64,000 nucleotides of DNA from Lysobacterales bacterium (GTDB lineage Bacteria; Pseudomonadota; Gammaproteobacteria; Xanthomonadales; Rhodanobacteraceae), in the NCBI GenBank assembly GCA_002632325.1, contig NSJK01000003.1, positions 37,957 through 101,956 of the forward strand, in the 5' to 3' direction. Below, one piece after another: positions 40,352 to 51,298 of this stretch (positions within the stretch are counted from its first letter, which is position 1; the number at the start of each line of letters is the position of its first letter). The translations under genes were made by a program, and so were the position numbers. The notes beneath the pieces were generated by a model. It saw only the letters and a list, made by a program, of their open reading frames with translations, had not been told where the DNA came from and made no database searches.

Positions 40352-40918
40352 ATGCACGCCGAGGAGACAACCGCCCTGCTGCTTGACCGCGCGCGCGGCG
40401 GCGATGCAACCGCACGCGATCGGCTGGCTGCGCGCTACCTGCCGATCCTGCGCCGCTGGGCCCATGGCCGGCTGCCGTCCTCGACCCGTGATCTCACCGA
40501 CACCGACGATCTTGTTCAGGTGACGCTCTTTCGCGTGTTGGATCAGATCGGGAAGTTCGAGTACGGCGGCGCAGGCAGCTTCCTTGCCTACCTGCGCAGT
40601 GCCCTGCTCAACCTCCTGCGCAACGAGATCCGTCGCGTTGCGCGGCACGGCAAAAGTGTTGGTTTGGACGAGAACCTCGCCGAGGACGATACGGCTTCAC
40701 CGCTGGAACTGGCGATCGGGCGCGAGCGCCTGGAACGCTACGAAGCCGCGCTCGAGGCGTTGCCGCAGCGCGCCCGCGAGCTGGTCATCATGCGCCTGGA
40801 GTTCGACATGACTTACGACGACATCGCCAGCGAATTGCGGTCAACGCCCGATGCGGTGCGCATGGCGATCAAGCGCGCGGTCGAATCGCTCGCACTCACC
40901 TTGGGAGAGCGCGCATGA
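40352..40918 (+). CDS. ECF-type RNA polymerase sigma-70 factor
   Basis: In frame within ORF 40298..40918; ATG 40352. N-terminus TTALLLDRARGGDATARDRLAARYLPIL. Region 2 (DDLVQVTLFRVL.., FLAYLRSALLNLLRNEIRR) and region 4 HTH (LPQRARELVIMRLEFDMTYDDIASELRSTPDAVRMAIKRA). Its stop overlaps the kinase start. Confidence 0.85.
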   Translation: MHAEETTALLLDRARGGDATARDRLAARYLPILRRWAHGRLPSSTRDLTDTDDLVQVTLFRVLDQIGKFEYGGAGSFLAYLRSALLNLLRNEIRRVARHGKSVGLDENLAEDDTASPLELAIGRERLERYEAALEALPQRARELVIMRLEFDMTYDDIASELRSTPDAVRMAIKRAVESLALTLGERA

Positions 40919-42483
40919 GTGCGTCCGATCCCGTGCGCGAACTGGTCGAGCAGCTGGTGGAAGGCAAGCCGATCCAGTGGGACCGCGCACCCGTCGATGA
41001 TCTGGCCCTGCTCGATGCCGTGCACCTGCTCGATCAGGTGCGCGGCACCTACCGTCGCATCGGCGACGCCAAGGAGCCGGCAACGCAGGTGCTGTTCCGG
41101 TGGGGATCGCTGTCGGCACTGGAAAAGGTCGGCAGCGGCGCCAGCGCCGAGGTATGGCGCGCATGGGATCCAGGCCTGGCAACCCAGGTCGCGCTCAAGC
41201 TGCTGCGACCGGAAGCTGCCGCCGCGGGCCTGCGCAGCGAGGAGTTCCTGCGCGAAGGCCGCCTGCTGGCGAAGCTCTCCCATCGCAACGTGTTGCGCGT
41301 CCATGGCGCAGCCGTGCATGACGGCCGCCCCGGCCTGTGGAACGAGTGGATCGAAGGCCGCACGCTCGAACAGCAGGTCGGCAGCGACGGTCCGCTCGCC
41401 GGCGCGGAGGCCGCGCATGTCGGTCTGGAACTGTGTGCCGCGCTCGCTGCGATTCACGCCGCCGGGCTCGTGCATGGCGACGTCAAGGCCAGCAACGTGC
41501 TGCGCGCGCGCGGTGGCCGCATCGTGCTGGTCGATCTCGGCGCAGCCGGTACGCCCGAAACACTGCGTGCTTCGCTGCGGACCCAGGCCACGCCCGCCTA
41601 TCTTTCACCGCAGGCACGCGATGGTGCGGCGCGCTCTGCGGCTGACGATCTCTATGCCCTGGGCGTGTTGTTGCATTACCTGCTGACCGGTGCATATCCA
41701 TCGAACGAACGCACGGACCTGCGCGCCCGACTGCCCGATCTGGACCCGCGCATCGCCGGGGTCGTCGAACGCGCACTGAGCGCCGATCCCGCGCAGCGTC
41801 TTGCCGATGCGCACTCGTTTGCCGATGCGCTGCGTGCCAGCCTCGGCAGCGTGCCGGCGCCAGCGCGCATGCGCCTTGCCTGGTTCGCCGCCGCAGCCGC
41901 CGCAGTGATTGCGCTTGGCGTGTGGGCAAGTTGGCCAGCGCCGCCGGAAACCGCATGGGCGCCGCAGGCGGCACTCGTCCGCCACGATCAGGCGGGTATC
42001 GCGCTGCGCGATGGGGACGCACTCGCCCTGGGAGACCGTCTCGACCTCAAGCTCACAAGTGATCGGCCGACCTGGGTTTACCTCCTCAACGAAGACGCGG
42101 CCGGCAGCTTCCACGTGTTGTTCCCGTTGGCAGGCTTGCCGCATGCCAATCCGCTGCCGCGCGGCCAGACCATGCTGCCGGGCGAACAGGCAGGTCGCAC
42201 GCTCTCCTGGCAGGTGTCGAGCGCAGGCGGACGTGAGGAATTCGTGCTCGTGCTTGCCAATGCTCCCTTGCACGGGTTCGAGCAGCGACTGGCCGGATTT
42301 GCCACCGCATCGATCGAGGCACCACAACGCGGCGTTGCGCAGGTCGGCTCCGCGCCACTGGCCAATGTGTCCCTGCGCGGTCGCCATCTCAGTGCCCTGC
42401 TCGATGAATTCGCCGGTGAGCTTGGCGACCGGCGGCGCGTCCAGGTCGTCGCCTACCGCTTCGACGCGCCGGCAAGCCAGTAA
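40915..42483 (+). CDS. Hanks-type Ser/Thr protein kinase with one TM helix and an extracytoplasmic DUF4384-like domain
   Basis: ORF 40915..42483. G-loop-like GSGASAEVW, VALKLL (Lys), catalytic loop LVHGDVKASNVL, DLG, TM WFAAAAAAVIALGVWASW. Ectodomain ..DRLDLKLTSDRPTWVYLLNEDAAGSFHVLFP... Confidence 0.85.
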   Translation: MSASDPVRELVEQLVEGKPIQWDRAPVDDLALLDAVHLLDQVRGTYRRIGDAKEPATQVLFRWGSLSALEKVGSGASAEVWRAWDPGLATQVALKLLRPEAAAAGLRSEEFLREGRLLAKLSHRNVLRVHGAAVHDGRPGLWNEWIEGRTLEQQVGSDGPLAGAEAAHVGLELCAALAAIHAAGLVHGDVKASNVLRARGGRIVLVDLGAAGTPETLRASLRTQATPAYLSPQARDGAARSAADDLYALGVLLHYLLTGAYPSNERTDLRARLPDLDPRIAGVVERALSADPAQRLADAHSFADALRASLGSVPAPARMRLAWFAAAAAAVIALGVWASWPAPPETAWAPQAALVRHDQAGIALRDGDALALGDRLDLKLTSDRPTWVYLLNEDAAGSFHVLFPLAGLPHANPLPRGQTMLPGEQAGRTLSWQVSSAGGREEFVLVLANAPLHGFEQRLAGFATASIEAPQRGVAQVGSAPLANVSLRGRHLSALLDEFAGELGDRRRVQVVAYRFDAPASQ

Positions 42484-42611
42484 TTGGCACGAGGCCATCC
42501 TCCGGCGCGGCATGACAATGACCGCACGGCAAGTGCCGCCCGCAGATGCGTCCGGGTACCGGCAATGCCGCCAGGATCGCCTTGCCCTAGACTCCAGCCC
42601 GGGGAGGGCCG

Positions 42612-49787: not shown

Positions 49788-49810
49788 CGCACCGCCCGGG
49801 AGCCCAGGCC

Positions 49811-51298
49811 ATGCGCACCATTTCCTATTCCCTTCTCGGTCTCGTCGCGCTGTTCGCCACGCGCGTGGATGCGGCCACGATCATCGTGCATGCCGGCGAC
49901 CAGTTGCCCAATGGCACCTGCTCGCTGGCCAACGCCATCGAGGCGGCCAACACGAACTTCAGCGTCGGCGGCTGTCCGGCCGGCTCGCCGGGCGAGGACA
50001 CCATCCGCTTCGATCCCACGCTCACTTCGATCACGTTCTCGCAGCCCATCTCCGGCACGGTCGACGCGCTGCGCGTCACCGAGGCGCTGGTCATCGACGG
50101 TAGCGATGCCGGCGGCGTGCTACTGCAACGCTCGACTGCGCTCGACGACAGCACGCCGTTCCGCCTGATCCAGGTGTTCACCCCGACCCAGCCCGTGACG
50201 CAGGGACCGGCGTTGAGGCTGGTGGCGATTCGTTTCGCGAACGGGCTGACCACGGGCTTTTCCGGCGACACCAGCAACGGCGGATGCCTGCTGATCCACG
50301 GCAGCCTGTCGATGCAGGGCGTATCGTTCACCGGCTGCCGCGCGAACGGGCTAACCGGCAGCGGCGGTGCGGTCGCGCAGATCGGCAACGGCGATCACAC
50401 CTTGCCGACACTGCACGTCGCCGGCTGCACCTTCGAGGCGAACGAAATCTATGCCGGATCCGGCGGCGCGCTGTATGCCGAGAGCCCGGACGTCGATGTA
50501 ATTGACAGCACGTTCCGCAACAATCTGGCCGGCAGTGGCGGCGTCATTGGCCAAGGCGGCGGCTTGTCCGTGCATGGCGACGTCGCCGGCATGGGCACGC
50601 GCATCGAGCGCAGCACGTTCTCCGGCAATCGCGCGATGCAGGGCGGCGGCGGTCTGTTGGTGCCGGCGCCGGCGTTGTTGCGCAACATCACCGTGTCGAA
50701 CAACAGCACCAGCGTGGGCAGCGGCGGCGGCATCCTGCTTGACGGCGCCGAAACCGACGGCCTGCCGGGCCACCCCGCCGACATCACGATCGAGAACAGC
50801 ACGATCGCGGACAACAGCGCCGGCGACGGTGCAGGCGTGACCGGCGGCGCGTTCGCCGGCGGCATCTACTACGCGGCGCCATCGACTCAGAGCGGCGCAT
50901 TTCCACTGCAACTCGACAGCGTGCTGCTCGCTGGTAACACTGCCCGCTACAACGACGAGATCACGCCGCGCGACATCGGCGCGCAGTTCACGATCGGCAT
51001 CGCCGGGACCAACAACCTGTCGCGCGCCCTCGGAACGGGCGGCAGCAATTCCAATGTGTACTTCGACTTTGCGCCGGCCACCTGCGAACCGCAGCTCGCG
51101 CCGCTCACCGCCAACGGCGGTCCGACCGCGACGCGCGCGCTGCTACCTGGATCGTGCGCGATCGACGCCGGCGCAAATCCCGACGGCCTCACCACCGATC
51201 AGCGTGGCAGCGGGTACCCGCGTGTGCTCGGCAGCGCCGCCGACATCGGCGCGTTCGAGGGCAGCAGCGACGTCATCTTCGCCGACGGCTTCGATTGA
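49811..51298 (+). CDS. Secreted CSLREA-domain / choice-of-anchor Q protein with Pmp-like (GGA[ILV], FxxN) repeats
   Basis: ORF 49811..51298. Signal peptide MRTISYSLLGLVALFATRVDA. GTCSLANAIEAAN (CSLREA-like). GGALYA / FRNN / FSGN repeats. ..DQRGSGYPRVLGSAADIGAFE.. C-terminus VIFADGFD. Confidence 0.8.
   Translation: MRTISYSLLGLVALFATRVDAATIIVHAGDQLPNGTCSLANAIEAANTNFSVGGCPAGSPGEDTIRFDPTLTSITFSQPISGTVDALRVTEALVIDGSDAGGVLLQRSTALDDSTPFRLIQVFTPTQPVTQGPALRLVAIRFANGLTTGFSGDTSNGGCLLIHGSLSMQGVSFTGCRANGLTGSGGAVAQIGNGDHTLPTLHVAGCTFEANEIYAGSGGALYAESPDVDVIDSTFRNNLAGSGGVIGQGGGLSVHGDVAGMGTRIERSTFSGNRAMQGGGGLLVPAPALLRNITVSNNSTSVGSGGGILLDGAETDGLPGHPADITIENSTIADNSAGDGAGVTGGAFAGGIYYAAPSTQSGAFPLQLDSVLLAGNTARYNDEITPRDIGAQFTIGIAGTNNLSRALGTGGSNSNVYFDFAPATCEPQLAPLTANGGPTATRALLPGSCAIDAGANPDGLTTDQRGSGYPRVLGSAADIGAFEGSSDVIFADGFD

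Follow-up and report, generated by a model that had tools for sequence, protein, structure and literature searches.

A conserved trio of ECF sigma factor, DUF4384 kinase and TPR-CHAT protease genes with variable exoprotein cargo in Dokdonella and related Gammaproteobacteria

The locus described here lies in a 64,000-nucleotide stretch (the window) of contig NSJK01000003.1 (assembly GCA_002632325.1, positions 37,957 to 101,956) from a member of the Rhodanobacteraceae, and consists of six genes, all on the + strand, encoding a sigma factor of the extracytoplasmic function (ECF) type, a Hanks-type Ser/Thr kinase, a protease-like protein with tetratricopeptide repeats (TPR) and a CHAT domain, and three beta-helix proteins designated BH1, BH2 and BH3 (Table 1). 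Identical coordinates are found in the public gene calls for JAUQYJ010000035 (GCA_030837585.1, Dokdonella_A sp002632325); Dokdonella is a soil bacterium. The stop codon of the sigma factor gene and the start codon of the kinase gene share an ATGA at 40915-40918 (a 4-nt overlap), with intergenic gaps of 128 bp (kinase-CHAT), 109 bp (CHAT-BH1), 50 bp (BH1-BH2) and 23 bp (BH2-BH3), such that the layout, overlap and spacing given in an earlier, sequence-only reading of this DNA are all reproduced from the coordinates. In keeping with the domains named in that reading, searches with profile hidden Markov models placed Sigma70_r2, Sigma70_r4_2, Pkinase, DUF4384, TPR, CHAT and Beta_helix/NosD above their Pfam gathering scores. 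The CSLREA model TIGR04214, which had also been put forward, gave no NCBIfam match at E<=0.01; among distant BH1 relatives, some carry the name 'CSLREA domain-containing protein' at their sources. No anti-sigma gene is present in the block according to the public gene calls, and no second copy of any block gene was found within the window.

Conservation of the neighbourhood was followed from CHAT orthologues used as anchors, by public contig look-up and a scan of one genome per species, with the six window proteins mapped onto the fetched loci (numbered below with the prefix L). The sigma factor, DUF4384 kinase and TPR-CHAT genes recur as a unit in 22 further loci reached from three different anchor proteins, showing that their adjacency is not due to chance. 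With CHAT as the anchor, the sigma factor and DUF4384 kinase were present in 18 of the 18 gammaproteobacterial loci with enough upstream flank, lying upstream with the order kept in 17 and, in the exception L016, as a pair some 6 kb downstream of CHAT, on the same strand. Anchoring on the kinase returned the trio in three of three loci (D. fugitiva twice and a Rhodanobacter metagenome-assembled genome, MAG), with one more locus reached from a BH1 orthologue. Carriers include Dokdonella (among them D. koreensis and D. soli), Rudaea, Ahniella, a Lysobacteraceae MAG and gammaproteobacterial MAGs. The trio is the core of the locus and the beta-helix genes are its variable cargo. The cargo may lie between kinase and CHAT, divergently upstream, or downstream on either strand, and at other loci comprises Calx-beta/DUF5122, FG-GAP, LVIVD and other secreted proteins, with a BH1-like protein of about 800-860 amino acids (aa) being the commonest (13/22 loci). 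The three beta-helix genes had been listed with the candidate envelope system; they are not fixed parts of it, being replaced elsewhere by these other secreted proteins.

The sigma factor is an ECF (group 4) sigma-70 factor having regions 2 and 4 only, with matches to Sigma70_r2 (E 2.9e-10, 40.2 bits) and Sigma70_r4_2 (2.2e-11, 43.6 bits) above their Pfam cutoffs and to TIGR02937 at 78.6 bits against a cutoff of 42.9; its best NCBIfam subfamily matches, TIGR02984 and ShbA, are far under theirs. Sigma factors of the ECF43 group, such as EcfP of Vibrio parahaemolyticus and EcfK of Xanthomonas citri, lack the acidic DAED/DxxD motif in region 2.2, where uncharged residues stand instead, and carry a phospho-acceptor Thr at motif position 3 (STTA, QATE; consensus QTTA). 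The window sigma factor has a Hanks kinase gene adjacent and no anti-sigma gene, as in ECF43, but it differs from EcfP and EcfK in region 2.2, where it reads D50-T51-D52-D53 and the acidic residues are kept. Across the 19 aligned trio sigma factors the motif is [DE]-T-[DEA]-D with the invariant Thr at position 2, not position 3, and the ECF43 phospho-position is occupied by Asp or Glu in 18 of the 19. With its acidic contacts kept and its Thr at position 2, the sigma factor is not a textbook ECF43 member, and the kinase may act on it in a different way.

The kinase consists of an N-terminal extension (aa 1-66), the kinase domain, one transmembrane (TM) helix and a DUF4384 ectodomain. A single TM helix with a DUF4384-like ectodomain had been anticipated, and both are now placed, with the ectodomain measuring 182 aa and carrying a Pfam match. 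Pkinase covers aa 68-268 (E 1.7e-27, 96.9 bits) and the window protein has VALK95, HGDVKxxN187 and DLG207, with VALK, HGDxKxxN and D[LF]G invariant in 18 orthologues; the residues that define a Hanks-type kinase are all present and the HGD form makes it a non-RD kinase. Kinases of the family also share the N-terminal extension, some 65 aa long and with an invariant Trp. No anti-sigma domain was detected in it by Pfam at E<=10, where chance matches to HAMP and BrnA were the only returns, and with no extra gene in the public gene calls this bears out the earlier statement that an anti-sigma open reading frame (ORF) is missing.

DUF4384 (PF14326), a domain for which a full-text search found mention in only seven papers, was matched at aa 370-449 (E 7.5e-9, 36 bits against a gathering cutoff of 27), in agreement with the precomputed Pfam annotation of the listed homologues. 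The AlphaFold2 model of the ectodomain (mean per-residue confidence, pLDDT, 85.6; predicted template-modelling score, pTM, 0.82) shows a beta-sandwich, then helices and finally a closing strand. No significant relatives of it were found in the PDB by fold (Foldseek) or by sequence profile, and PDB sequence searches with the kinase, CHAT and sigma proteins returned generic kinases, TPR proteins and ECF sigma factors only. A search of 1.84 billion cluster representatives with the ectodomain found 1037 proteins at E<=1e-3, most of them kinases of 520-640 aa with DUF4384 at the C-terminus; the order of N-terminal extension, kinase, TM and DUF4384, taken from the alignment consensus, is common to the 102 homologues that were aligned. 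An Arg-Gly pair at Arg472, within an R-G-V/I-G motif, is a candidate site for cleavage or docking by CHAT: the Arg is present in 49 of 49 and in 101 of 102 aligned homologues, the remaining one having Lys. It sits in an indel-rich loop modelled with low confidence, with flanking residues of pLDDT <50.

The CHAT protein has a predicted signal peptide (aa 1-22), helical repeats to about aa 590 and a CHAT domain (PF12770) at aa 685-1016 (E 2.6e-46, 158.8 bits), together with matches to TPR_12, TPR_2 and TPR_1. It is a member of the caspase-like protease family and protease activity is predicted for it. The motifs ILHFGTHG (His846) and LAACSTASG (Cys923) are both present, and the two residues are invariant in 21 orthologues, in all 19 aligned trio CHAT proteins and in 10 more distant CHAT proteins, which agrees with the intact His/Cys dyad seen in the first reading. 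Signal peptides were judged by N-terminal hydrophobic segments, AxA-like sites and their conservation in orthologues; signal-like segments were found in the CHAT protein, where orthologues conserve them, and in the three beta-helix proteins, such that the export predicted earlier for all four still appears probable. No other hydrophobic helix and no anti-sigma domain was detected in the CHAT protein by hydropathy or Pfam. The orthologue family is sharply bounded, with proteins of about 1000 aa at 43-97% identity before values fall to about 30%. The AlphaFold2 model (pLDDT 80, pTM 0.82) has as its full-length Foldseek neighbours separase, DdvA (8rw5, 8rot) and the Csx29 complex 7zoq.

Pairing of CHAT with DUF4384 extends beyond the trio. 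In seven loci of Myxococcota and Acidobacteriota (L039, L042, L050, L057, L061, L062 and L073) DUF4384 proteins are encoded beside CHAT genes, and there the pairing is independent of kinase and sigma factor; in L050, L057 and L061 the DUF4384 proteins have lipobox-type signals and duplicated C..(S/R)RG(L/V)xY motifs after the domain. In L045, L067 and L079 (Thermoanaerobaculia/Acidobacteriota) a Hanks kinase with a CHASE2 extracytoplasmic domain is encoded immediately upstream of the CHAT gene, in what looks like a parallel pairing with a different sensor domain. At L087:4757-8719 (Polyangia), by a CHAT gene, a zf-HC2 anti-sigma motif is joined in one ORF to kinase, nSTAND1 NTPase and FGE-sulfatase domains.

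All three beta-helix proteins scored above the Pfam gathering score (BH1 31.3 bits; BH2 41.1, to NosD, and 32.1; BH3 43.1). BH1 is an N-terminal beta-helix module fused to a BH2-like module (52% identity by BLASTP), and the choice-of-anchor Q model (NF041518, cutoff 25) matched the C-terminus of BH3 at 75.5 bits (aa 427-483) and BH1 just under the cutoff at 23.9 bits. Their role is probably surface or adhesive. The three proteins and many cargo proteins of related loci end in (D)x[IV]Fx[DN]GF[DE], as in the tails of BH1 (...IFADGFDPAIP) and BH3 (...IFADGFD), with some cargo lacking it, such as Calx-beta proteins ending ...GENACEE.

The sigma factor gene has no Shine-Dalgarno sequence before it and is preceded by the extended -10 box TGCTATAAG of sigma-70 type. 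A TGCTATAAG-type box at 6-7 nt spacing is also found in L006, L007, L008, L010, L012, L013, L015 and L093, and because this conserved box lies 7 nt upstream of it, position 40352 was taken as the sigma start rather than the upstream ATG at 40298. The sigma-kinase mRNA, with a predicted sigma-70-type promoter, appears to be leaderless or nearly so. Before the CHAT gene there is a sigma-70-like -10 hexamer, conserved between the window and L010, together with a strong Shine-Dalgarno sequence; the equivalents in relatives are TAAACT, TAGAAT, TATGCT and TATTCT, with one of the latter three before CHAT in L006, L007, L008, L090, L091, L092 and L093.

A different element precedes the cargo. Cargo genes share a bipartite motif, TGTTCG-N15/16-G[GT][GT]TT[CG], ending about 30 nt before their start codons. 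It emerged only from lining up the upstream regions of cargo genes; counting bipartite motifs naively upstream of sigma factor genes gave nothing above shuffles, and a generic sigma-70 promoter scan of the block found no promoters, with terminators at chance level. In its strict form (-10 half G[GT][GT]TT[CG]) the motif has 31 matches in 440 kb of trio loci against 5 in 991 kb of other fetched loci, while the relaxed form (GNNTTC) has 35 matches in 504 kb of trio loci and window, of which 30 precede an ORF of 150 aa or more by 15-60 nt, against 10 matches in the 991 kb of other loci, 2 of them before such an ORF. The -10 half is GCATTC in the D. soli/L021 clade and GATTTC in L022. The strict motif occurs once in the window, before BH1, where 0.05 matches are expected, and with a position weight matrix the BH1 site scored 27.5 bits as against <12.7 for the next site and <=17.5 for shuffles, the matrix including the window site itself. 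BH1 and BH2 are probably co-transcribed, with a 50-bp gap and no motif of its own at BH2. The motif never precedes the CHAT gene, but stands before the sigma factor gene in seven loci (L006, L012, L013, L015, L022, L091 and L092), which would be consistent with autoregulation, typical of ECF sigma factors. L093, retrieved once the motif was already established, shows the complete pattern again. The sequence-only reading proposed that the module controls the exoproteins encoded downstream, and this is supported by the promoter-like motif before exoprotein genes and, in the seven loci, before the sigma factor gene.

Table 1. Genes, residues and sequence elements of the locus, with related elements in the window and in other loci
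Feature	Position	Strand	Basis or remark
ECF sigma factor, 188 aa	40352-40918	+	Sigma70_r2, Sigma70_r4_2, TIGR02937; alignment of 19 trio sigma factors
Hanks-type Ser/Thr kinase, 522 aa	40915-42483	+	Pfam; alignment of 18 orthologues
TPR-CHAT caspase-like protease, predicted secreted (periplasmic), 1018 aa	42612-45668	+	Pfam CHAT, orthologues, AlphaFold2, Foldseek
BH1, predicted secreted two-module parallel beta-helix, 818 aa	45778-48234	+	Pfam Beta_helix; BLASTP against BH2; orthologues by trios
BH2, predicted secreted NosD/beta-helix, 500 aa	48285-49787	+	Pfam; BLASTP
BH3, predicted secreted Pmp-like beta-helix, 495 aa	49811-51298	+	Pfam; NCBIfam
Extended -10 box TGCTATAAG, sigma-70 type	40336-40344	+	7 nt before sigma factor ATG
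Kinase TM helix, aa 321-339	41875-41931	+	Kyte-Doolittle maximum 1.92
Predicted periplasmic ectodomain of kinase, aa 341-522 (182 aa)	41935-42480	+	AlphaFold2 model
Arg472 codon, R-G-V/I-G motif	42328-42330	+	Candidate CHAT cleavage or docking site
Sigma-70-like -10 hexamer TAGACT before CHAT	42588-42593	+	Conserved between window and L010
CHAT Shine-Dalgarno sequence GGGGAGG	42601-42607	+	Strong
Catalytic His846 codon of CHAT	45147-45149	+	Invariant in alignments
Catalytic Cys923 codon of CHAT	45378-45380	+	Invariant in alignments
Predicted ECF-type promoter TGTTCG-N16-GTGTTC	45720-45747	+	Ends 30 nt before BH1 start codon
Tail motif in BH1, BH2, BH3	48199-48219, 49761-49781, 51275-51295	+	
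Tail motif elsewhere in window	25903-25923, 29618-29638	-	
Second-type sigma/kinase pairs	L006:1-3182, L091:20379-21557, L094:3859-7168		Near BH1-like genes

Several known systems resemble parts of this locus. EcfP-PknT and EcfK-PknS likewise have an ECF sigma factor gene followed by a gene for a single-pass TM Hanks kinase with a periplasmic sensor domain, lack an anti-sigma gene and act on a nearby secretion or envelope locus (a type VI secretion system for EcfK, the predicted exoproteins in the window), with EcfK coming from the Xanthomonadales lineage to which the window also belongs. The X. citri kinase PknS was found to autophosphorylate when its periplasmic domain is removed, which the full-length protein does not. 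Aside from region 2.2, the window differs from these pairs in that its kinase ectodomain is DUF4384 and a TPR-CHAT gene is always attached, none having been described for EcfP or EcfK. The kinase architecture itself, kinase, TM and DUF4384, has been catalogued as the 'Proteo1' family in an atlas of bacterial Ser/Thr kinases without function, partner or genomic context, and the likeness to the window kinase is one of architecture only.

An ECF sigma factor tied to a periplasmic TPR-CHAT with a His-Cys dyad is known from DdvS/DdvA of Myxococcus xanthus, in which the TPR-CHAT part of the anti-sigma factor DdvA has been proposed as its own site-1 protease. DdvA carries its TPR-CHAT on one polypeptide with a zinc anti-sigma domain and a TM helix, whereas the window CHAT is a free, predicted secreted protein without the cytoplasmic zinc anti-sigma domain and TM of a DdvA-type polypeptide; the membrane transducer in the window is a kinase, and the predicted regulon consists of exoprotein genes, not CBASS or CRISPR genes. 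The TPR-CHAT protease of type III-E CRISPR systems, Csx29, cleaves Csx30, whose N-terminal domain binds the ECF sigma factor RpoE, and in one group of Csx30 the C-terminal domain has been reported as DUF4384. The craspase Csx29-Csx30-Csx31-RpoE thus has, like the window, a TPR-CHAT protease, a DUF4384 partner (in that Csx30 group) and an ECF sigma factor as output. Unlike craspase, the window has no Cas7-11, CRISPR RNA or Csx31 and no detectable Csx30-like sequence, its protease is predicted to be periplasmic and not RNA-activated, and DUF4384 is fused to a kinase instead of a sigma-binding Csx30 N-terminal domain; the public gene calls within 10 kb on either side contain no Cas7-11/gRAMP, CRISPR array or Csx30/Csx31. 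A full-text literature search for the combination of components returned only the DdvA papers. The earlier statement that no characterised system of this kind exists therefore holds for the exact composition, but not for close analogues, namely EcfK/PknS, EcfP/PknT, DdvS/DdvA and the craspase Csx29-Csx30-RpoE.

The conserved trio, its intact catalytic residues, its export signals and the cargo motif with its distribution were all obtained by computation. The interpretation of them that we favour, and hold to be slightly better than evenly probable, is that a constitutively expressed trio responds to a signal in the envelope and switches on the BH1-BH2-BH3 operon, with CHAT acting on or with the DUF4384 ectodomain, the ectodomain signalling to the kinase and the kinase to the sigma factor. 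In such a scheme the sigma-kinase operon would be constitutive and translationally coupled, transcribed from the nearly leaderless sigma-70-type promoter, and the CHAT gene would be constitutive from its separate promoter. CHAT would then work in the periplasm with the DUF4384 ectodomain, most likely by cleavage or docking at the exposed Arg472-Gly loop, a step that resembles the site-1 cut of an anti-sigma factor or the cutting of Csx30 by Csx29. This event would alter the activity of the cytoplasmic Hanks kinase, which would in turn activate the ECF sigma factor, either by phosphorylating it at a residue different from the classical ECF43 one or through its release from the kinase N-terminal extension, and the sigma factor would read TGTTCG-N15/16-GNNTTC promoters, in the window that of BH1-BH2-BH3 only. 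The action of CHAT on the ectodomain, the direction of signalling, the phosphorylation of the sigma factor and the nature of the signal are inferences.

A number of observations weigh against this scheme. The sigma factor keeps its acidic D-T-D-D, such that the ECF43 logic of an inactive sigma factor rescued by phosphorylation is not obviously applicable, and the block contains no phosphatase gene. The ectodomain has no structural neighbour to hint at a ligand, and its conserved Arg-Gly could be a structural or ligand contact instead of a cleavage site. In the clade of the window itself the sigma factor gene lacks the motif, and the motif also stands before BH homologues far from any trio (at L095, and at L094 beside a different sigma/kinase-TPR pair), suggesting that the regulon may be dispersed or the element read by paralogous sigma factors. 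The half-sites, with GTTC in both, could also form a direct repeat for another DNA-binding protein.

The favoured scheme has to be set against other explanations of the same genes. CHAT could be the effector, maturing the exoproteins as a processing or sorting protease in the periplasm, for example through TPR repeats that read their IFADGFD tails, with sigma factor and kinase serving as the ordinary switch of the same locus. Clan CD proteases include the sortase-like PorU and GPI transamidase, and C-terminal peptides are common ligands of TPR domains. This general knowledge speaks for an effector, as do the C-terminal tail shared by the three beta-helix proteins and many related cargo proteins, and the constant adjacency of CHAT to genes for secreted proteins. 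The tail is lineage-wide, however, being found on a cupredoxin-like protein, on a D. koreensis endonuclease and near one N-terminus, and some cargo, such as the Calx-beta proteins, lacks it. A role in maturing exoproteins is also less likely than one in signalling because the CHAT gene lacks the cargo motif, has a sigma-70-like -10 box of its own and, in phyla where this cargo is missing, stands by genes for DUF4384 proteins, and we regard the effector role as rather unlikely. A lower probability still is given to the kinase as a membrane tether, the equivalent of an anti-sigma factor, in which the extension of about 65 aa would hold the sigma factor until a cut in the ectodomain by CHAT led to regulated intramembrane proteolysis and sigma release, with phosphorylation being secondary. 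With its acidic region 2.2 the sigma factor looks competent for core binding and so calls for negative control, the extension with its invariant Trp is conserved in the family, the Polyangia kinase encoded by a CHAT gene at L087 has a zf-HC2 motif N-terminal to its kinase domain, and the DdvA model is a precedent. Yet the extension yields no anti-sigma domain even at the permissive threshold, there is no RseP-type gene in the locus, and the strict conservation of the kinase catalytic residues argues that phosphotransfer matters, making the tether improbable.

Both characterised TPR-CHAT/ECF-sigma systems serve phage defence, and the window genes might likewise form an anti-phage or abortive-infection module akin to DdvS/DdvA or craspase, with the beta-helix genes as unrelated neighbours. 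The kinase does match PADLOC kinase models, but generically, and PADLOC gave generic kinase and TPR matches only, with no system-specific component. There are no CRISPR, CBASS, nuclease or mobile-element genes within 10 kb on either side and no tRNA gene in the window, the protease is predicted to be exported, and the predicted promoter ties the module to exoprotein genes, so that a defence role is considered very improbable. Chance adjacency, or co-regulation only, of six unrelated co-directional genes has its a priori possibility to recommend it and is refuted by the 22 further loci in which the trio occurs amid other flanks and with its cargo rearranged; its probability is negligible.

A broader form of the signalling interpretation, which we offer as a possibility that falls clearly short of being probable, is that CHAT and DUF4384 make up an old protease/target cassette that has been wired to ECF sigma factors more than once. 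In the Xanthomonadales CHAT would cut the kinase ectodomain at Arg-Gly, with the kinase then turning the sigma factor on, making the trio a CRISPR-independent, extracytoplasmic sibling of Csx29-Csx30-RpoE. If true, this would be a proteolysis-gated kinase-to-sigma cascade. The module relates craspase's output arm and the model for DdvA to a broader group of signalling devices unrelated to CRISPR, and it gives the orphan domain DUF4384 a testable role as partner or substrate of CHAT proteases. The locus bears on how Hanks kinases partnered with ECF sigma factors, EcfP/PknT and EcfK/PknS included, sense their signals, and on the use of bacterial TPR-CHAT proteases outside CRISPR systems, offering a compact conserved case of firm genetic linkage between a predicted periplasmic caspase-like protease, a kinase ectodomain and a sigma factor. 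The module is carried by cultured strains (Dokdonella koreensis, D. fugitiva and D. soli), and the predicted target promoter is directly usable as a reporter.

The block is flanked by rsfS-rlmH on one side and by deaD/nadD-holA-lptE on the other. The rsfS-rlmH and nadD-holA-lptE genes are contiguous in many Gammaproteobacteria; at about 39050-55600 the block and deaD (+ strand) split rsfS-rlmH from nadD-holA-lptE (- strand), with the rsfS side of the junction shared with L007, L008 and L090 and the other side not. The deaD gene, 3' of BH3, has its own sigma-70-like -10 box (TACACT, 51363-51368), and the interval that separates it from BH3 contains no detectable terminator-like hairpin. No tRNA genes and no Rfam matches were obtained when the whole window was scanned.

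The tail motif, in the approximate form [DQ]x[IVL]Fx[DNS]GF[DE], marks secreted proteins of the lineage, in which it may serve as a lineage-specific tag for sorting or anchoring; nothing on it came up in a literature search for FADGFE. Elsewhere in the window it ends a cupredoxin-like protein of 131 aa (25891-26286, - strand), and at 29618-29638 it lies near the N-terminus of a protein, directly after the signal peptide. It is also C-terminal on LVIVD and FG-GAP proteins and on the D. koreensis endonuclease (loci L006, L007, L008, L022 and L038). A function of the IFADGFD tail as a CHAT-specific sorting signal was considered and is ruled out by its presence on unrelated secreted proteins elsewhere in the window, also near N-termini. 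At L007:8113-9904 a beta-helix gene between kinase and CHAT seems to be broken into pieces of 121 and 38 aa, with the motif before it kept at 9401-9427. Dokdonella also has a second type of sigma/kinase pair, in which an ECF sigma factor accompanies a kinase of about 920-960 aa with C-terminal TPR and no CHAT gene is present; in L094 the BH gene by such a pair bears the same promoter-like motif.

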